Source: Octopus sinensis (lineage: Eukaryota). Taken from it: a stretch of DNA of 64,000 nucleotides. Where the stretch lies: positions 83,018,001 through 83,082,000 of the forward strand of contig NC_043000.1 in assembly GCF_006345805.1 (NCBI RefSeq), read 5' to 3'. This document shows, piece by piece, positions 2,049 through 64,000 of the stretch (position 1 is its first letter; every line of letters begins with the position of its first letter). Made by a program: the position numbers and the translations under genes. The notes below the pieces were generated by a model. That model was not told the origin of the DNA. It searched no databases and saw nothing but the letters and a program-made list of their open reading frames with translations.

Positions 2049-3029
2049 CTGAAATAAAGAAAGAAAGAAATCAAAACCATGCCTTGTGAAAAGAATGAGT
2101 TGTTATATTTGGAAATTTTTTTTAAATGGCTGGATGCTGAAATCTATGAATATATGTGAAGGCACAAGACTTTTAAACAGACTAAAGCAGTGGTACACAT
2201 AACTGCAATCAATACATTTGTTATTACTGAATTTATAACTGTTAAGATTGCACAGTCTAGTAAATTAGTGCTTCAGTCTACTATTACCAAATATATTTGA
2301 AATGTAGTTGTTATAAAGTAGAAATGCATTTGAACATAAAGTAATTCTTTTTATTTGTCATTAACAAATTCTGTTTTAGGCATAGATGACTGAATAAGCA
2401 CTGAAAAATGAAAGATTCTATATTAGCAAGATGACAATTTGAAAGCAGTTGTTTGGAGAACTACATCTATAATACTGATAAAGAAATTCTTTCCCAATGT
2501 ATATACCAAGAGTATTATACAATACTGCAATAAAATATGGACAGTAAGAATCTTTAATGACTTGGAAATACCTCAGTATGATTTACTAAATGTACAATAG
2601 GTACTTTGAAGAAAACTAAAGAAAGGCTTAGTACATGCCTTTATGAATTATAAATACATTATCTCCTTATATCATTTATTGGCTGGACTATCAGATGTTC
2701 TTATACATCACTGGTCACAAAGCACTTTCATCCTTCCCTTAATTGGGCTCTTCTATTCTTCTTGAGCCTAAATTATTTGATTATGCCATCTTCCTATAAT
2801 CTTGGAGGTCTTCTGATATCTTAAATCAGTTTTAAAGCAGTCTCATTTTCACCGATTAGGTAGTCCTCAGTCTCTCTTTTGCCTATCACTGTGATCCCAT
2901 CTTTGTTCTTGAATGCTGTCACCTCCAATTCATGTAAATTTATATTTGAAACTGATGAAAGGAAATAAAGCCTCTGGAAAGGATGGTATAACAATGGAAA
3001 TGTTGAGGGTGGAAAATAATTACTGTAGA

Positions 3030-3455
3030 AAATCCTTGCACACTAAGTTATAATGTTCTCAGTCACTTCTGTTGTTTATAGCAGTGCTTGAAAGTAAAGT
3101 GAGTAAAGTGTGGTCATCTCAGAAAGAACATTGGGTTTCAACTGTGCAGGATCTCCTTGACTGTGTTGAGGAAGATGATAATGTTTTGAAAACAGTCATA
3201 ACAGGTGACAAATCATGAATCTATAGCTATGACCCTGAAACCAAAGTTCAGTCTTCATAATGGAAGAACCCAACAAGATTTCAAAATATCAAGGAAATCT
3301 AAAAGAATGCAACAAGGCAGCTGCTTGTTATTCCTAAAAAGGAGTTTCATCAATGGAAATGCCTCTAGATGGTTTTGAAAAGGATTAAATGCCGAATCAA
3401 TATGTGTTATAGTTTTCTTTTTACAACAATAGTCCCAATAATTTTTGACCTTGTA
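3030..3455 (+). mobile_element. Mariner fragment
   Basis: VITGDKS*IYSYDPETKVQS motif. Confidence 0.65.
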
Positions 3456-3567
3456 TACATTATTACATGTATATCATTATATATATTATCATATGTATCA
3501 TCTATGTTATTATTATTTCAAACATATATAATTTAACTATTGTATAGAATTAATATATATATATATA

Positions 3568-3799
3568 CTTTATTTAAGGCAGCAGAAAATTCAACAAAAC
3601 CTGTTACTCTGAGTTTCCCATTGCCGTTCATCAGACAGTTTTTGCAATTCTAGCAAAAACTGTCCGATGAACGGCAATGGGAAACTCAGAGTAACAGGTT
3701 TTGTTGAATTTTCTGCTGCTTTAAATAAAGCATATTACTCTACCACTGGTATTTGAGTACTCTTTTTTCCACCTTGTTTCACATTTATGTGTTTACTCT

Positions 3800-3801
<2 letters not shown>
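3568..3801. mobile_element. Penelope-type pseudo-LTR remnant in inverted arrangement, flanked by (TA)n
   Basis: 78-bp arms 3568-3645 and 3653-3730 with 2 mismatches and a 7-nt loop; each arm carries a hammerhead-like core. Confidence 0.7.
3596..3642 (-). ncRNA. Type I hammerhead-ribozyme-like motif
   Basis: Minus strand reads CUGU-CUGAUGA-ACGGCAAUGG-GAA-ACUCAGAGU-A-ACAG: helix I CUGU/ACAG, intact CUGAUGA and GAAA, palindromic helix III ACUC-A-GAGU, GUA cleavage triplet; helix II weak. Confidence 0.65.
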
Positions 3802-3868
<67 letters not shown>

Positions 3869-4077: not shown

Positions 4078-4934
4078 CTGTAGATTAAGAGCAATAGCCA
4101 AAATTTTAGAAGTTACATAGTCATAATTACAAAGTAACAATCTGAAGCTGTTCAAGTTTTTAAGAGTGAAAATTAGAAAATGTAACAATTTCTGTTGTTA
4201 AAATACTACCAATTCAGTTGTAGAAACAGAATTCTTTGATGATGGTTACTTGGAAATAGAGAATACAGTTGGTACATGCATGAATGGCAAAATGGATTAG
4301 AGTGTTATTAGTCTTAGTTTCTCAAAATCTATATTCAGAAATAAGCTTAATGATCATCAAAGATCAGACTGATTGAAACAGAGTGTATTTGTAAATATTA
4401 AAAGTTTTTTCATCTCTGAAGATGAAGCTAATAATTTGAAAGATTATTTCCAAACTCTCCCATGTTGACAGAGTGATGCACCTGATATGTAGCCTGAAGT
4501 GAAAGTCTAAAGGAAATACATTGCAAGAATCCAAACCAAACTCCATTTCCTTCTCCAACCATACAGTAAACTTTGCTTCAGGATTTCATGAAACAAATGA
4601 TGGCATTAAACTTGCCAGCTTGTTAGAGATCAAATATTGTGGGCCTATAAAATCATTTGAAACAAAAATACATTTTATAAGAAAAAATAAACATCTGTAA
4701 GAAGTAAATGAAAATGCTATTGTTTCTAAACTTAATTTTTAATTAAAAAAGTTGGGTTGTCATCATTAAAATTTATTTTAATAAGCTAAGGGAAAAAGAG
4801 CAGGGCTGATGATCTTTGCAAGCTCTCCAAGACAATTTAGAATAACGAACCTGCTGTACAGTCTGAAAACATGAGAAGGCAAATGTCTGAAAGGAATATC
4901 TAAATGGGGAAGTAATTTGGAGCAAATGGTGATA

Positions 4935-24613: not shown

Positions 24614-24834
24614 TTTGTCAAAGCATTGAAGCGAAGAATAATATCAACAAGAGTCTCCCATTTTTGCTTATACTGAAGAACAATTATGGCTCTTTTGCAG
24701 ATTTTCTCAATAATACGACCATCAACAACAGTGACATCATCAAGAACTGGATCAAAATGGAGATTGCAACTCCCTTTAAGGTCAGTCTGTGTATTAGACC
24801 AAGGGTCAGCTTTAAAAGAATCATTTTCTGTTGA
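24614..24834 (-). CDS. CFAP54: CFAP54-like exon, STENDSF...LHFDPVLDDVTVVD...KWETLVDIILRFNALT
   Basis: tttacAG|...AA|GTAAAC; 221 nt, phase 0/2; strong resemblance to recalled LTFEHPLDDVNVVD...KWETLVSLAIQFN. Confidence 0.92.
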
Positions 24835-30479: not shown

Positions 30480-33450
30480 TTCATTCGCCATTAACACTTT
30501 AAATGTATTAGCTACTAACAGCTAGTTTTTCAGAAGCTAACCATTTAAGCTGACCCCTCAATATATAACTTCTTCATCTCTCATGTAATTTCACGAAGAT
30601 AATTACTCATTTCTTGGTTTGTTTAAAATTTCTTGTTCTTTGGTTTAATTTCTCATTTCTGTGATCTCAGTTCTCATCCACCATGAACACTCTGAATGTA
30701 TATTATTATTATTATTACTATTATTTTCGTTCCTCATACCATCTCTCCAAATTAAACTTTGCTTGTTCATAGTGTGCCTGCCCTTTCCCGCCCCCACCAC
30801 CAATACCGGATATCTCTATCTCTATCTTCCCACCATCTACACCGGATATATCTCTCTCTCCTCCCACCACCATTACCTGATCTCTTTTCTCCCAACCCTT
30901 CCTCCTCACTGGGCTGTTCTCTATGCATTACCTGAACTCTTTCTTTCTTTCTCTCTCTCTCCTGGGACAAATGCAACTAGCTCAGCCGCTCACCTACTTA
31001 ACCAGCTATCTTTCATTTTGTTTTGTTCTGTCTAGAAATTTGTCACCACCATTACCAGATATCTCTTCTCAATCCTCCCCACTAGTGCTGTTCTCTATAT
31101 TACCTGCACTTTCTCTCTCTCTCCTGGGACAAATGCAACTAGATTAGCTGCCCACCCACTTAACCAGCTATGTTTCATTTCGTTCCATCTAGAAATATGC
31201 CAACAACTACCTGATAATTTTTCATGGACATATCAAGTGAAGGAGAAAGCTAATGGGCTGTACATGTGTGTTTGTTCCTCTGTGTGTGTGTGAGTGTGTG
31301 TGTGTGTGCATGCATGCGTGCTTGTGTGTATGGTTGAGCTTGTTTCCTCTCTTTCTCTGTCTGAAACATCCCCTCACCACCGGTGGTACCCTCCATCATA
31401 CCTACAATCCCCTCTCCCTGGAAAAACTCAACCAGTTTAGCTGACTCCCTACTTAATCTAACATTGGAATATCCATATTTGCAACATCGCTTAAATTTAC
31501 ATTTTTACGATGACCATAATACTTATACTTACAATGCCTCTAACACCTACTCCTACCTCCAGTAGGGGCAACAATCTGAACACGCTTGAATGTTTGTATG
31601 ATGTCAGGTCGGATGTGAGAACAGGTGAAGCATGCCTAAAATACAAACACGACATCCACCCTCTTCTTTTCAGGTGCTGAATAACATCTCTCCTCCCCAA
31701 GCCTCACCCCAGATTCATTTCCCAGTTTTCAGAGTTGGTACTGAAAGGTAGGTCTAGTGAGATTGTAGAGATGTTTGAAAGGAGATGTGTCATTGTATGC
31801 TGCATACAAAAGGTAAGATGGAGAGGAGCTTCAGCTAGGATCCTCACAGGCAAAGCATATAGATATAAAATCTTCTGGCAAGGAAACATGGATGGAGTAG
31901 AGGATGTAGACATAGTCCTTGCAGAGAAATGGGTGGATAAGGTCATAGAGGTTGTCAAGGTATGTGATAAAGTGCTTAAGCTTAGGCTAGTCCTGCAGAA
32001 CAGCACAGCTACAATTATCTCTGCCTATGCCCTACAAGTGGGCCTACCAAATGATCAGAAGGACCACTTTTATGATACCCTTCTACAGGTTACCTCAAAG
32101 ATGAGTGGCAGTGACCTCATTATTGCGGCTGGAGATTTTAATGGGCATGTTGGGTGGCAATCTGGTATATCACTGGTATGCATGGGGGCCATAATATTGG
32201 TTCCTGAAATGATGAGGGAACTAAGCTACTGGAGTTCTGTGATGCATGCAACCTTTTAATCTCCAACACTAACTTCAGGAAGACAGACAGCAACCTGGTA
32301 ACCTATTAATCAGGTGATTGATTTCATCATCACCAGACTGTGGGACACAGGGCTGCTCTTAAATACAAAGACCCTCCCAGGTGAAGAATGTACCCACCTA
32401 GTCATTAGTGATTCTAGACTCGAGGCCAGAAGGATGCCAAGAAGCAGACCAATCCAGAAAAGAAGAATTTGGAAGCTAAAGAACCCTTCACATGATCAGA
32501 GATTTAGGGATATCCTCATCAAGAAATTTGATGAGAAGGAGGAGGAGCTACAGAACTCGGACATAGAAGGTAGCTGGAAATTCCTATGGGACAGTTTACT
32601 GAGTACCACAGACCAAATCTGTGGATGGTACAAAGTCCCTTCCAGACCTAAAGTGACGTGGTGGAATAATATGGTAGACAAAGCCATTAAAGCAAAGAAA
32701 CAGGCCTGGAAAGGCTGGAAGGGTGGGGGTAGCAGGGAATTGTACCAGATAGCCAGAAGGGAGGCTGGGCGACAGGTATACATAGCCAAGGGTGAAGCAG
32801 AAAAGAAGAAGTTTGTCAATGTCCAGTGACATGAGGACCAAAGAACTAAAGTATTTCTGATTGCAAGACAGTGTGTGAGAGAAAATTGTGATGTCACAGG
32901 AGAGAAATGTGTCCACATGGATGAAAGTGCACTTGCTTTTAATGATTCTGAAAAGAAAGAGGCTTGGAGAAGCCATTATGAAAGACTGCTGAATGTGGAG
33001 AATGAATGGGAGGAGGAGAGCCTGCCAAATGTTGACCCAGTAGAAGGACCAGCTATTCGAACAGACAGAAATTGGGTAGATAAAGCAATTAAGGTTATGA
33101 AGCCAGGAAAAGCCCCAAGCCCATCAGGAATCACTTCTGAGATGCTTAAAACATATGGTGGTGTGGGCTATGGCCTAGTCACCCGTTTTGTAAACCAGGT
33201 AGTTCATGATGGAGTCATACCCAATGACTGGCATAGCAGCACCATAGTCAACTGCTACAAGGGGAAAGATGATGCTTTAGATAGTAATAACTAGGTAGAA
33301 GCACTACTGATGCTATATTCCTGGTACGGCAACTGCAGGAGAAATACCTAGCCAAAGATAAACCCCTATACTTAGTTTTTATTGACTTGGAACAAGCCTT
33401 TGACAGGGTTCCCCAATCCCTTACCTTGTGGTCAATGAGGAAACTTGTAG
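30480..33450 (+). mobile_element. RTE-clade LINE, older copy, 3'-truncated
   Basis: ORFs 31735-33294 are homologous to the APE, linker and early RT of the 16459 copy; pyrimidine-rich 5' region with approximate boundary. Confidence 0.85.
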
Positions 33451-48352: not shown

Positions 48353-49550
48353 TATGAAGGAGTATTGCTGAAGCTTCAAAATCTTACATCCATTAATTTC
48401 AATGTTTCTTATTAACAATTGTATTGTTTCTTTCCACCTAAACTGACATCTGATTCTTCAAAGATTTCAAAAGTGACTAGTAGAGGCTTCTCTTGAAAAT
48501 CAACAAAATTTAGCATTGTGGTATAGCACTCAACAACGTTCATGCCAACATAGTTGTTATATTAGAGGAAGATGGTCCAGCTTTATCAACAACGCAAAAG
48601 TGGGCAGCTGAATTTAGGAGGAGCAGGGAGAGTCATTAAGATGACCTAAGGTCTGGACATCCTGCAACTGTCACAACTGAGGAAAATATTGCATGTGTTC
48701 ATCACATGGTGACAGATGACAGGCAATTGACTATAAATCAAATAGCCAATGGCATTAGTATATCTTGTGAGAGAGTTAAGAATATTCTGCATAAGGAACT
48801 TGGCCTAATGAAGGTTTCTGTTGGGTGGGTGCCATGTCTTCTGAGACCTGATCAAAAGTACATGGCTGATCATATCATGGGAAAATCTGACATTGTTTGT
48901 AACAGATTTAGTTGGTTTCTTTGAACATTTCCTAACCCAGGATGAGCTTTGGGTTCATCACTTTGAGTCAGAGACAATGAGACAATCCATGCAATGGAAA
49001 CACCCCTCCTCACCTGCTCCAAAGAAGGCCAAGGTCTTTTCATCTACAGGGAAGGCAATGGCCTCAGTTTTTTGTGATGCAAAAGGCATTGTGTTTATTG
49101 ACTATCTTGAAAAGGGTCACACCATCAATGGAGAGTACTGTGCCAACTTGCTGAGGCAGTTACAAAGGGCTATCAAGACCAAATACCCATGAAAACTGAT
49201 GGAAGGGGTCGTGTTTCATCAGGGCAATGATCCTGCACACAAGTCCTTGGTTTCAATGGCTGCTGAGCATGACTGTGGCTTTGAACTGGTTGATCAGCCT
49301 CCCTATACTCTTGATTTGGCCTCATCTGACTATCCTCTGTTCTCCAATATGAGAAAACATTTGGTTGGGAACCAGTATTGCAGGGATGATTATGTTATAG
49401 CTGCTGTTGATGGCTTTCTTGAGCAACAGGATGAAAGCTTCTTCACCAATGGGATCCAAGTGCTGCAACACCAATGTGTGGACCACAAGGGGTGTATGAT
49501 GAAAAATAAACCTCATTTGGTCAGCCTATGAACTTTTCAGCCAACCCTTG
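48353..49550 (+). mobile_element. Mariner transposon, decayed
   Basis: WVPCLL, LTQDELWVHHF, PPYTLDLASSDY across three broken ORFs. Confidence 0.9.
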
Positions 49551-56232: not shown

Positions 56233-57521
56233 CGAGGGGCGTTCAATAAGTAATGCCCCTGACCCACTTCCCATAGCAGTAGAGCAACGAAACTTGGCAC
56301 AGTTATTAGTCTTTTTCTACATAGGAACCACCCAGAGTTACGCATTTCTCCTATCATTTGATGCGGCTCTGGAGACCGTTTTTGTAGAAGAACCCAGCTT
56401 GGTCCTCCAACCTCAACGTGACTTCAGAAATCAAGGCTGCATCATCTGGGAAACGCTTTCCTTTCAAAAACAACTTCATGATTGGGAAGAGGTGAAAATC
56501 AGAGGGTGCAAGGTCAGGAAAGTAGGGGGGATGGGAGGAGTTCATAGCCATACGCCTGTGCTTCTGATCTGGCGACAAGCGAGTTGTGGACGGAGCATTG
56601 TCCTGTAGGAGGAGGATGCCTTTGCTGATCTTACCCCACCTCTTGATTTTGATAACTTCTCTTAATTTCCTCAAAAGTGAAGCATAATAAGCTCCTGCAA
56701 TCGTGGTACCCTTTGTCAAGAAATCTGTCATCACTACTCCGTCCTGGTCCCAGAAGACTGTGAGCATGACCTTGCCAGCGGAGGGCTGCACCCTTGCCTT
56801 CTTTGGAGGAGGTGAGTCATGGTGCTTCCACTGCATTGACTGGGCTTTGGTCTCTGGATCATCGTGATGGACCCAGGTTTCATCTTGTGTAATCAGTCTT
56901 TTGAAAAATTTTGACTCATCTTCTTGGCACATCTCCAAATTCACCCTCGAGCACTCGACGCGTTCTTGCTTCTGGAAAGGCGTGAGCAACCTGGGAATCC
57001 ATCTGGCAGACACCTTTTGCATATGCAAATGGTCATGAATGATAGTTTCCACAGACCCGTTACTAATCTTGACCTCATGGGCTATTTCGCGAATAATTAT
57101 GCATCGATCTTCCAAAATGGCAGCCTCAACTTGACGGACAGATGCCTCATCAATGGCAGAAGGGGGCGACCAGATCTGGGAGCTGTTTCCACAGAGTTCC
57201 GACCATGTTTGAATTCACGATGCTAGCGTTTTACAAGGTCATATGATGGGGCATCATCACCATAAGTTACTTTCATTTCATCAAAAGTCTCCCGTGGTGT
57301 GCGTCCTTTCAAATACAAAAACCGGATCACTGCTCGACACTCAACAGGCTCCATTTCACACTTGACTCGGTTCAAACACCTGTAAATCAGAAACCACAAT
57401 TAATTCAGAGCTGTAATTTGCCACTTATTCTATAGAGATATAAATGATTGCACATGCAAAATTTCAGCTAGATCAAACAACTGCAAGTGGGTCAGAGGCA
57501 TTACTTATTGAACGTCCCTCG
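56233..57521 (-). mobile_element. Mariner (DD34D) transposon, full length but frameshifted
   Basis: TA target duplication 56231-56232 and 57522-57523; TIR CGAGGGGCGTTCAATAAGTAATGCC; motifs SARWIPR, ITQDETW, LQDNAP, YFPDLAPSD; a stop in the N-terminal part. Confidence 0.95.
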
Positions 57522-61147: not shown

Positions 61148-64000
61148 ATCATCATCATCATCATCGTTTAGCGTCCGCTTTCCATGCTGGCATGGGTTGG
61201 ACGGTGCAACTGGGGTCTTGGAAGCCAGAAGGCTGCACCAGGCCCAGTCTGATCTGGCAATGTTTCTACGGCTGGATGCCCTTCCTAACGCCAACCACTC
61301 CATGAGTGTAGTGGGTGCTTTTTACGTGCCACCTGCACAGGTGCCAGACAAGTCTGGCAAACGGTCATGGTCGGATGGTGCTTTTTACGTGCCACCAGCA
61401 CAGAGGCCAGGCAAGGCTGGCAACGGCCACGATCGGATGGTGCTTTTTACGTGCCACTGGCACGGAAGCCAGTCAGGGCAGCACTGGCAACGGCCACGTT
61501 CGGATGGTTCTCTTATGTGCCACCAACACTGATATCACAGCGACAATTTCCATTCATGTTGATCAATTTTGATTTTTGATTTTTTGATTTTTTGATTTTC
61601 ACACAACTATCTTCATTCATTCTCGCCACATGGCCATACCAGCACAAACGTCTCTCTAGCACACAGCAAATGATGCTTCTTAGGTCCAACTTCTCTCTCA
61701 AGGTACTTACACTCTGTCAAGTATGAACACTGACATTACACATCCATCGGAACATACTGGCTTCATTTCTTGCGAGATTACGCATATCCTCAGCAGTCAC
61801 GTCCCATGTTTCACTGCCATGTAGCATGGCTGTTCGTACACAAGCATCATACAGTCTACCTTTTACTCTGAGCGAGAGGCTTTTTGTCCCTAGCAGAGGT
61901 AAGAGCTCTCTGAACTTTGCCCAAGCTATTCTTACTCTAGCAGTTACACTTGCAACACATCTGCCCCCACTACTGACTTGGTCACCTAGGTAACGGAAGC
62001 TATCAACTATTTCTAGTTTTTCTCCCTGGAAAGTGACGGGAGTTGGTCTCAGAGCATTTTCGGTGTTTGTTGCTCCTGAGCATCTGCCACATACAAAAAC
62101 TATCTTCCTAGTTAGCCTTCCCTTGACGTTGCTGCACCTCTTGTGTGTCCATAGCTTATACTTGGTGCATCTTATAGAGTTTCTACCTACGCCTTTCCTA
62201 CAGATCGAGCAAGGCCATCTACCTAAAGGCGTTTGTGACTTGTCTACCTTCCTACTTATTAGGACTTTGGTTTTAGCTAGGTTGACTCTAAGGCCCTTCG
62301 ATTCTAATCCTTGCTTCCACACCTGAAACTTCTCCTCCAGTTCTGATAGTGACTCAGCAATTAGAGCAAGGTCATCAGCATAGAGGAGCTCCCAGGGGCA
62401 TCCTGTCTTGAATTCCTCCGTTATTGCCTGGAGGACTACGATAAATAGGAGGGGGCTGAGGACTGAACCTTGGTGGACCCCTACCTCTACCCGGAATTCT
62501 TCACTGTACTCGTAGCCAACCCTCACCTTACTAGCAGCGTCCCTATACATGGCTTGCACAGCTCTCACTAACCATTCATCTATCCCTAATGTCCTCATTG
62601 ACCACCAGATAAGAGATCGGGGGACCCTGTCGAAAGCTTTCTACATGTCAACGAAAGCCAGGTACAGGGGCTTATCTTTGGTTAGATATTTCTCCTGCAG
62701 CTGTCTTACCAGGAATATGGCATCAGTGGTGCTTTTCCCTGGCATGAATCCAAACTGCATCTCATCTAAACTAACTCTCTCTCTAAATAGTTGGGCTATG
62801 ACCCTCTCCATAACCTTCATTACCTGATCCAACAGCTTGATACCTGTAATTATTTGTATCTAGGGCGTCACCTTTACCTTTGTAGCAGTTGACTATTATG
62901 CTGCTACACCAGTCATTGGGTATGACTCCTTCGTGTATTACCTGGTTAACTATACGGGTGACTAGGCTATAGCCTGGGCTTTCCCTGTCTTCATGCTTCT
63001 AATTGCCTCAATTACCAAGAAACTGTCAACTCGGATAGCTGGTCCCTCTGTTGGGTCGACATTCGGCAGACTCTCTTTATCCCATTCATTTTCTTCATTC
63101 AGCAACCTTTCATAGTGGCGTCTCCACACCTCTCTCTTTGCATCCTCATTTAGCGCAAGTGAACCATCATCCATGCGAACACATTTCTCTCCTACCACAT
63201 CATGATTCTCTCTCACACACTGTCTTGCAACGCGAAATACCTCAAGTCTTTGGTCCTCACGGCGCAGAACATTGGCAAATTTTTTCTTATCTGCTTCCTC
63301 TCTGGCTAAATAAACCTGTCTCCTAGCTTCTCTTTTGGCAGTCTGATACAATTCCCTGCTACCCCCATTTTTCCAGTCCTTCCAAGCCTGTCTCTTTTCT
63401 CTAATAGCCCTGTCTACAACATTGTTCCACCACCACGTTATTCTAGGTCGAGAGGGGACTTTGCACCAGACACAGATCTGGTCAGTGGCTCTCAGCAGGT
63501 TGTCCCTTAGAAACGTCCAGTTGTCTTCTACCCCCTGTGATGCTCTATCCCCTTCTACTTCGTCAAAGGTTTCAAGTAATATGTCCCTAAATCTCTGTCC
63601 ATTTGCAGGATCTTTAAGCTTCTAGATCCTTCTTCTCCATGTTGGTCGTCTTCTGGTCATCCTCTTAGTCCTGATCCTAAAGTCACTAACTACCAGTCTA
63701 TGTTGTGGGGTACATTTTTCGCCTGGGAAGGTTTTGGCATTTATAAGCAGCCATCTTTCCCTTTTCCTGGCAAGGATGTAGTCAATTTGGCTGGTATGTC
63801 GACCCGATCGGTAGGTGACTAGGTGGCTGGTAGGTTTCCTGAAGTTAGTGTTGCAAACCATGAGATCATTTGCGTCGCAGAACTCCAGGAGCCTGGTTCC
63901 CTCCTTGTTGCGGGAACCATAGCCATAGCCTCCAGGTACACCATGGAAGCCCCCAGCATGTTTTCCAACATGCCCATTGAAATCACCAGCCACAAAGAGA
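61148..64000 (-). mobile_element. RTE-clade LINE, same family as the 16459 copy, runs off the window edge
   Basis: APE C-terminal part, RT with LLYADD, PHD-like finger, 3' UTR repeats, (ATG)n tail; high visible similarity to 16459-19515. Confidence 0.93.

Follow-up and report, generated by a model that had tools for sequence, protein, structure and literature searches.

A near-perfect hairpin in an octopus CFAP54 intron as the leader stub of a Hydra-clade Penelope-like element, likely formed by twin priming

How did a near-perfect 78-bp hairpin made of two back-to-back hammerhead-ribozyme-like motifs come to lie in an intron of Octopus sinensis, and does it have a role there? In the window analyzed here (a 64,000-nucleotide stretch of contig NC_043000.1), the arms at 3568–3645 and 3653–3730 pair at 76 of 78 positions, all but 3578 and 3633, and enclose a loop of 7 nt (3646–3652), just as the first-pass annotation of this stretch had described. 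The hairpin folds with a computed energy of −145.9 kcal/mol (z = −25), which none of 200 shuffled sequences equalled. Its assignment to a CFAP54 intron also holds: tblastn puts the hairpin between minus-strand matches at 4085–4008, a CFAP54-like exon that lies upstream of the host intron and outside the element, and at 2099–1845. Exon after exon on the window's minus strand is matched by a CFAP54-like protein of Octopus bimaculoides, the exon at 24616–24834 (minus strand) at 89%. Pfam returned nothing for two host exons. From the minus-strand exon mapping, the right arm is transcribed before the gene-sense arm in the CFAP54 pre-mRNA, in agreement with the order proposed earlier. Just left of the hairpin, at about 3040–3400, lies a stretch that by the look of the sequence we take to be a decayed mariner-like transposase remnant; its start is repetitive. 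Further CFAP54 introns contain frames that presumably represent LINE reverse transcriptase/endonuclease fragments and mariner-like transposases (31681–33291 and 48845–49528 on the plus strand; 56357–57214 and 61720–63999 on the minus strand).

The limits originally given to the feature, 3568–3730, are correct for the hairpin but not for the element, since the right arm starts at 3647 and continues via a 71-nt tail to 3801. A genome search with one arm returned many near-identical copies, whose shared sequence stops at two places, each entering (TA)n: a short end at +84 and a long end at +155, where +1 denotes the A at 3647. The whole insertion thus spans 234 bp (3568–3801) and is a fold-back mini-copy consisting of two head-to-head, outward-pointing copies of the pLTR (the 5′ leader): (i) a short arm on the minus strand (3568–3645, +7 to +84), which ends just past AATAAA and is gene-sense in the CFAP54 pre-mRNA, and (ii) a long arm on the plus strand (3647–3801, +1 to +155), which alone carries the 71-nt tail (3731–3801, +85 to +155). 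The loop holds the junction, where 3647–3652 are +1 to +6 of the long arm and 3646 is a single extra base at the join. Both outer ends are recurrent ends of the family and run into (TA)n, at 3554–3567 on the left and 3802–3866 on the right; because the insertion lies within a TA run, any target-site duplication is unreadable. The long arm is identical at 151 of 155 positions to a subfamily B copy, at 152 to the 5′ pLTR of locus L106 and at 149 to the corresponding pLTR of intact elements of subfamily A. At the start of the tail, 3736–3760 form a nested stem whose inner part is palindromic save for 1–2 bases; a metagenomic relative, L311, carries the counterpart of this stem, with a paired change, and there is a similar stretch in Hydra-2_Amil. 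The stem could be a protein-binding signal. Between subfamilies, the tail varies less than the ribozyme.

The same leader is found directly before and after intact reading frames, those of a reverse transcriptase/endonuclease, which bears out the first-pass reading of a young Penelope-like pLTR insertion. It flanks 727-aa open frames in L093, L094 and L095, and the pLTR repeat is met also in L106; in full elements the frame measures about 711–727 aa, and the leader lies 67 nt before the start codon and recurs after a 3′ UTR of about 1.0–1.3 kb. The parent protein contains RWK, D/EKT (EKT in L093, DKT in L094), YRDD, a Cx(C/F)x5C linker, CxxC before E and CxH after N, has no cysteines between GVVY and YTG, and lacks CCHH. 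The Neptune clade was considered and rejected on the last two features together with the presence of the Hydra-clade diagnostics, which the available part of Craig et al. 2021 gives as RWK, DKG replaced by DKT, a CxCx5C linker, no CCHH, CxxC and CxH around E and N, and a (TA)n target (PMC8557442). TA-type letters follow the long end in all 73 de-duplicated cases and occur on both flanks of the window copy. Among 50 frames, with overlapping loci unmerged, the second cysteine of the linker (near residue 561) is F in 30, C in 16, Y in 3 and S in 1; the linker is intact in L311 and in a second octopus family. The youngest intact copies have F at this position and are still inserting in (TA)n. Atlas neighbours of the parent protein at 0.97–0.99 carry HTH_animal, GIY-YIG or RVT_1, while a Pfam scan of the parent frame returned nothing and PDB sequence searches nothing useful. 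A metagenome scan returned only two relatives, one of which, L311, has 45% protein identity and a complete pLTR–ORF–pLTR layout; its hammerhead is located as in the octopus element, and it too has AATAAA and a tail, here of about 60 nt, that ends in (TA)n (265–310 and 3024–3174). Protein motifs, save for the variable second cysteine of the linker, and (TA)n target are common to the octopus family and the Hydra-clade families Hydra-2_Amil, Hydra-2_Ajap, Penelope-3_HM and Hydra-1_Obim, so far as these are covered by the consulted part of the same paper (PMC8557442). Going by these motifs, the hairpin is almost certainly the leader stub of an autonomous Hydra-clade Penelope-like element. The octopus family is a new family of a known kind, young and apparently still intact, and it was not found in the searched part of the Craig et al. 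2021 supplement (PMC8557442).

Both hammerhead motifs reported earlier are present, with cores CTGATGA from 3634 (minus strand) and CCGATGA from 3664 (plus strand). In the type I motif of the plus arm (3660–3697), helix I is formed by 3660–3663 and 3694–3697, the core occupies 3664–3670 (U4C), and helix II 3671–3680; GAAA at 3681–3684 is followed by an interrupted palindromic helix III (3684–3692), and the predicted cut falls after 3693. The type I motif of the minus, gene-sense arm spans 3601–3638, with its core from 3634 and its predicted cut between 3605 and 3604. The core C3 U4 G5 A6 N7 G8 A9, G12 A13 A14, A15.1–U16.1 and H17 is complete on the minus arm, and carries U4C on the plus arm and in the subfamily. 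Elsewhere in the window, a descriptor scan found no more than three looser matches, at two places. The Rfam check that had been suggested gave no hammerhead family at E ≤ 10, the only matches being generic miRNA hairpins below the gathering score. Helix III is palindromic, as stated at the outset, with four pairs on each side of one variable centre base, and its self-dimer is predicted at −9.4 kcal/mol; metazoan Penelope hammerheads are described, in the available text of one study, as cleaving weakly and as dimers (PMC4209133). From sequence comparison, the hammerhead is the normal pLTR motif of the Hydra clade, whose published examples, in the part of the compilation at hand, likewise have an actc-N-gagt helix III and, in many cases, a mismatched helix II base (PMC8557442). 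Among them, Hydra-2_Amil has a ctgt/acag helix I identical to that of the octopus family, whereas the hammerhead of Hydra-1_Obim differs, and the octopus helix II, with two firm pairs and a GNRA loop, is shorter than in the published Hydra rows (PMC8557442, same part).

The A·G at the base of helix II had been taken as a sign that this copy may be inactive, a view that comparison with the family does not support. In place of the G10.1–C11.1 opening there is A·G in the window copy and A·A, A·G or A–U across subfamilies; A·G is a subfamily trait, and the youngest subfamily, with intact frames, has A·A. In the 25 Hydra families seen in the available part of PMC8557442, the helix II base is U·U or U·C in 15, and position 4 is U in all 25. 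Since L311 also has C·A at the helix II base, with a paired change in helix III, and 15 of the 25 Hydra families are mismatched, the mismatch is not decay. An ancestor with G–C at this position was considered and rejected, with one matching place in the genome. The older subfamilies C and B2 have C4, a perfect three-pair helix II and a GNRA loop, the oldest sampled having A–U; B1 has C4 and A·G; the youngest, A, has U4 and A·A. Position 4 is thus C in three of four octopus subfamilies against U in 25 of 25 published Hydra families (PMC8557442, part consulted), so that this family and the second octopus family depart from the norm in having C4. According to PMC3088659, the U4C change reduces in vitro activity but was enough for a viroid in vivo.

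Nor is the canonical CUGAUGA of the gene-sense arm, to which the first-pass annotation drew attention, supported as meaningful: the subfamily has CCGA, and CpG decay is the most fitting source of the T at 3633. B-type arms seldom have T at +19 or A at +20, and have them about equally often (3 and 5, against 96), as CpG decay predicts; the canonical core is therefore likely accidental. Peculiar to the window copy is a G·U that replaces G–C as the top pair of helix II on either arm. Other frequent variants in the family fall at free positions (N7, the loop, the helix III centre and the helix I bulge), a placement which, as a post hoc sign, suggests that the hammerhead fold has been kept.

The exact 36-nt core occurs genome-wide 2,415 times in the form of the window copy, 2,850 times in a sister form and 873 times in an older form, and head-to-head junctions near +1 are present at no fewer than 370 loci; our copy samples need exact matches, so young copies are favoured. 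Arm-to-arm divergence at non-CpG sites is 1.0% in A, 2.4% in B1 and 3.7% in B2, and at CpG sites 5–14%. Such divergence is usable as an insertion clock, like that between paired LTRs, with CpG sites decaying several times faster. The window copy belongs to B1; A, which has intact frames, is the youngest. Some loci are more complex. L063 (2656–5200) holds three copies of one fold-back unit in 2.6 kb, and because private changes are common to all three, these units were duplicated after insertion. At the centre of L136 and in L325/L326, a tiny fold-back or TA run is flanked by inverted copies of a larger piece, and the nested unit of L136 includes unrelated captured sequence.

The way in which the two ends are combined follows a rule with few exceptions. 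A core-anchored sample (100 core matches, taken consecutively from the start of one contig) comprised 81 loci: 47 pair a short with a long end, one pairs short with short, none long with long, 6 are unclear and 27 are unpaired (15 long ends, 9 short and 3 other). Were ends chosen independently and with even odds, 47 of 48 mixed pairs would occur with a chance of about 2 in 10^13. A tail-anchored sample, which is blind to short+short units, contained 98 long arms among the 100 matches listed, 68 of them with an inverted partner that was short in 66 cases, cut off in 2 and long in none. Pooled and de-duplicated (n = 104), the samples give 95 short+long, 2 short+short and no long+long pairs, with 7 unclear, and both short+short exceptions are rearranged loci. 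The rule extends to an older subfamily (13 of 14 pairs, with one true long+long), to kilobase-long inverted units (11 of 11 classifiable among 12 examined) and to the second Hydra-like octopus family (4 of 4 inverted units). This second family (L374–L393, L359), in the same genome, has a short and a long end of its own, separated by about 70 nt, and a hammerhead with a long helix II that opens with G–C plus an extra U and a core that is mostly CCGA. Its helix III is identical to that of the hairpin's family, which would allow mixed dimers of the two.

The inner sides of the pairs are less regular. Among the 95 pairs, the short arm reaches further 5′ by at least 5 nt in 34 and the long arm in 23, while 38 lie within 4 nt; in 8, with a long arm that begins no earlier than +83 and is little more than tail, the two arms hardly overlap. 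At the 95 joins, the arms overlap by at least two bases in 53, are blunt or share one base in 21, and are separated by filler in 21. Subfamily variants are common to both arms of a pair, which fits one RNA template as well as two alike.

Towards the element's 5′ end, the arms share an edge. When both arms are counted, 39 of 99 arms in the core sample start at +1 to +5 and 46 at +6 to +35, none at −9 to 0, 6 at −49 to −10 and 8 further upstream; the 46 suggest that in many cases the cDNA ended before reaching +1 or was trimmed back from it. Half of 50 junctions among those listed are centred on CTAG (+4 to +7) or a one-base variant and are perfect palindromes, 12 are of a second type, and none has sequence upstream of +1; a piece of L016 that resembled plain upstream sequence is itself a fold-back junction. 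Genome-wide, +1 to +21 is matched 2,158 times and −3 to +21 1,558 times, a drop that exceeds the 1–4% per-base divergence in a comparison made without a matched three-base control. About 70 nt upstream lies a CCAAT box, and +1 itself fits an initiator pattern. From these features we consider +1 to be probably the transcription start of the element RNA; Penelope pLTRs are known to carry promoters, as the available text of two papers describes (PMC2377424, PMC3846280).

We consider it unlikely that the edge instead marks a structure-caused stop of the reverse transcriptase or a site at which a longer RNA is processed. A stop might be caused by the pairing that +1 to +6 can form, in subfamily B, with a six-base stretch about 20 nt upstream, but the enzyme would be halted on reaching the 3′ arm of such a stem, not after passing it. 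As to processing, the AG at +6/+7 resembles a splice acceptor; however, the bases upstream of this AG are kept in the junctions, and an older subfamily lacks the AG yet retains the initiator-like pattern. Processing by the hammerhead would place ends at the +47/+48 site, where there is no clear peak: only 3 of 98 long arms start at +48/+49, and two of these three begin at helix I microhomology.

Taking the transcription start as the probable source of the edge, we propose that the hairpin is the overlap of a 234-bp fold-back insertion in (TA)n, likely twin-primed on promoter-started element RNA. The element endonuclease would nick both strands of (TA)n, one nick priming reverse transcription at +84 and the other at +155, possibly aided by the TA-like letters that follow both RNA sites. 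Both cDNAs would extend to or near the RNA 5′ end at +1, their ends would join via a few matching bases, most often CTAG at +4 to +7, and fill-in would fix the palindrome. With a read-through transcript as template, the same steps would yield a long copy with an inverted, truncated partner. The hammerhead would be a passenger, copied uncut. For fold-back stubs in general, we regard twin priming as a fairly probable origin.

The letters after both sites are TA-like in all three cases: CATAT and T(G/C)TA here, TATAC twice in L311, and TATA and TAAA in the second octopus family. Seven of 73 long ends retain element letters for four further bases, which fits priming with slight pairing. The closest experimental parallel is Poseidon of the green anole (Frangieh et al. 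2024), whose protein, in the accessible text, nicks and extends both strands in vitro without needing hammerhead cleavage and starts at two internal sites that bound the tail of a sense RNA template (PMC11167929). The two systems are alike in their two tail-bounding start sites, AT-rich target and use of both strands; in Poseidon, however, the sites lie within the ORF and the strands do not differ in start site, whereas in the octopus element they lie in the 5′ leader, one of each per unit (PMC11167929, same text). Because the start sites there are called non-homologous to the cut DNA, the TA microhomology step is our inference only (PMC11167929, as far as available). The published complex Penelope insertions, in the parts of the papers at hand, share with the octopus units an inverted 5′-truncated copy, a one-sided tail and palindromic or microhomology junctions, and differ in that both octopus partners are leader-only and the tail is 71 nt against 30–40 (PMC8557442, PMC3846280); dual minimal hammerheads 100–700 bp apart on opposite strands are also on record (PMC4209133, available part). 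In the portions examined of the literature on complex Penelope insertions, we found no quantification of the short/long rule or of the +1 edge. Nor did we find, in the literature searched, subscription journals excepted, a Penelope paper that invokes twin priming. In LINE-1 twin priming, as reportedly described by Ostertag and Kazazian, both target strands prime on one RNA and the cDNAs join by microhomology. LINE-1 is said to produce an inversion without duplication from a variable inner site, in contrast to the two fixed sites of the octopus element and the overlapping cDNAs that would give a palindrome.

An unlikely origin is self-priming, in which antisense RNA or the first cDNA folds at the palindrome near +1 and copies itself, after which the endonuclease trims one arm, so that only the other keeps its tail. 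This is the reading proposed for head-to-head Penelope palindromes in the available part of PMC3846280, and the CTAG-centred perfect palindromes (25 of the 50 junctions among those listed) and the subfamily variants common to both arms agree with it. However, a self-copying long cDNA cannot yield a short arm that reaches at least 5 nt further 5′, as in 34 of 95 pairs, or the 8 pairs that barely overlap. An antisense template would, moreover, need to end exactly at the sense, promoter-like +1, and in vitro the template is sense RNA and both ends of the tail are start sites (PMC11167929, available text).

Still less probable, and in our view only a slight chance, is that the hairpin moves as a unit of its own, MITE-like or retrozyme-like, with its own master copy. 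Identical junctions are indeed common (among the 50 listed, 25 CTAG-centred and 12 of the second type), and the units have terminal inverted repeats in effect. Against this, junctions differ by locus and recur in subfamilies of different age, which argues that each fold-back unit arose independently; the autonomous element has the same outer ends; and the 81 loci include one triple direct repeat (L131) and no arrays of full units. The retrozyme-like insertion of the first-pass annotation is likewise set aside, as the copies derive from an autonomous element and lie scattered as head-to-head stubs, with no tandem arrangement. The non-LTR retrozymes of Cervera and de la Peña, as far as the consulted part of their preprint goes, are also non-coding and carry a type I hammerhead from a Penelope pLTR, but form head-to-tail tandem arrays of at least two units and have no linked ORF, whereas the octopus stubs are dispersed, head-to-head and bounded by the ends of their parent (bioRxiv 10.64898/2026.07.22.740005).

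What, then, would this stub do in its host transcript? The earlier suggestion that the antisense arm could mask the ribozyme is supported by modelling, which gives −142.8 kcal/mol for the duplex against +1.1 for the monomer hammerhead fold; the motif is predicted to be buried in the duplex within the CFAP54 pre-mRNA. As the monomer fold is unfavourable and the duplex far stronger, cleavage of the CFAP54 pre-mRNA appears unlikely from these models. The window copy is likely inert debris, and its main effect would be a 78-bp dsRNA open to ADAR. Editing of the hairpin RNA is plausible by analogy: in other animals, heavy editing affects palindromic repeats and, in a lizard, Penelope copies, and both near-perfect dsRNA and hyper-editing abound in octopus, as described in the available part of PMC5625713. 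The contigs of one presumed RNA run contain family sequence; their A>G and T>C differences were considered as editing and rejected, as they reflect a family variant at +32 that is found in DNA-type runs also. No contig of the four runs examined spans a junction of this insertion.

That the hairpin is instead a kept regulatory element of CFAP54, either a masked ribozyme switch or a selected ADAR/Dicer substrate, is very improbable. The canonical core on the gene-sense arm, the antisense arm that precedes it, and the editing of palindromes and Penelope copies in animals together with the dsRNA richness of octopus (PMC5625713, same part) speak for it. It is, however, one among hundreds of like copies, and two differences between arms of 78 bases are in line with neutral arm-to-arm divergence in the subfamily (2.4% at non-CpG and 14% at CpG sites). 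CpG decay accounts for the canonical core, and a further change, in both arms, has turned the top pair of helix II into G·U.

Two wider readings follow from the twin-primed origin that we prefer. The first, to which we give no more weight than to its opposite, is that every Penelope-type insertion might be a fixed twin priming, with one hard-wired RNA site per nicked strand; this would explain the one-sided tail, the inverted pLTR and, with a promoter-started mRNA, the hundreds of leader-only hairpins that mark the transcription start. The second and bolder one, prompted by the spread of subfamilies with a weakened core to thousands of copies, is that the palindromic helix III may be kept mainly to pair two RNAs for a protein dimer, and not for cutting.

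Taken alone, the locus is of little import, being transposon debris in an intron. Fold-back Penelope insertions are of a known kind, and the value of the octopus set lies in its counted end-pairing rule and its edge at +1. As a population, the copies are a clean genomic record of the formation of inverted pLTRs with a tail at one end, which is unexplained in the Penelope literature. They yield exact predictions, namely a start site and two priming sites, one per strand, which make an open point of Penelope transposition directly testable. The family's ribozyme core has been off the clade norm through most of its spread, and the family contributes several hundred short, perfect hairpins to an animal in which RNA editing is known to be heavy.
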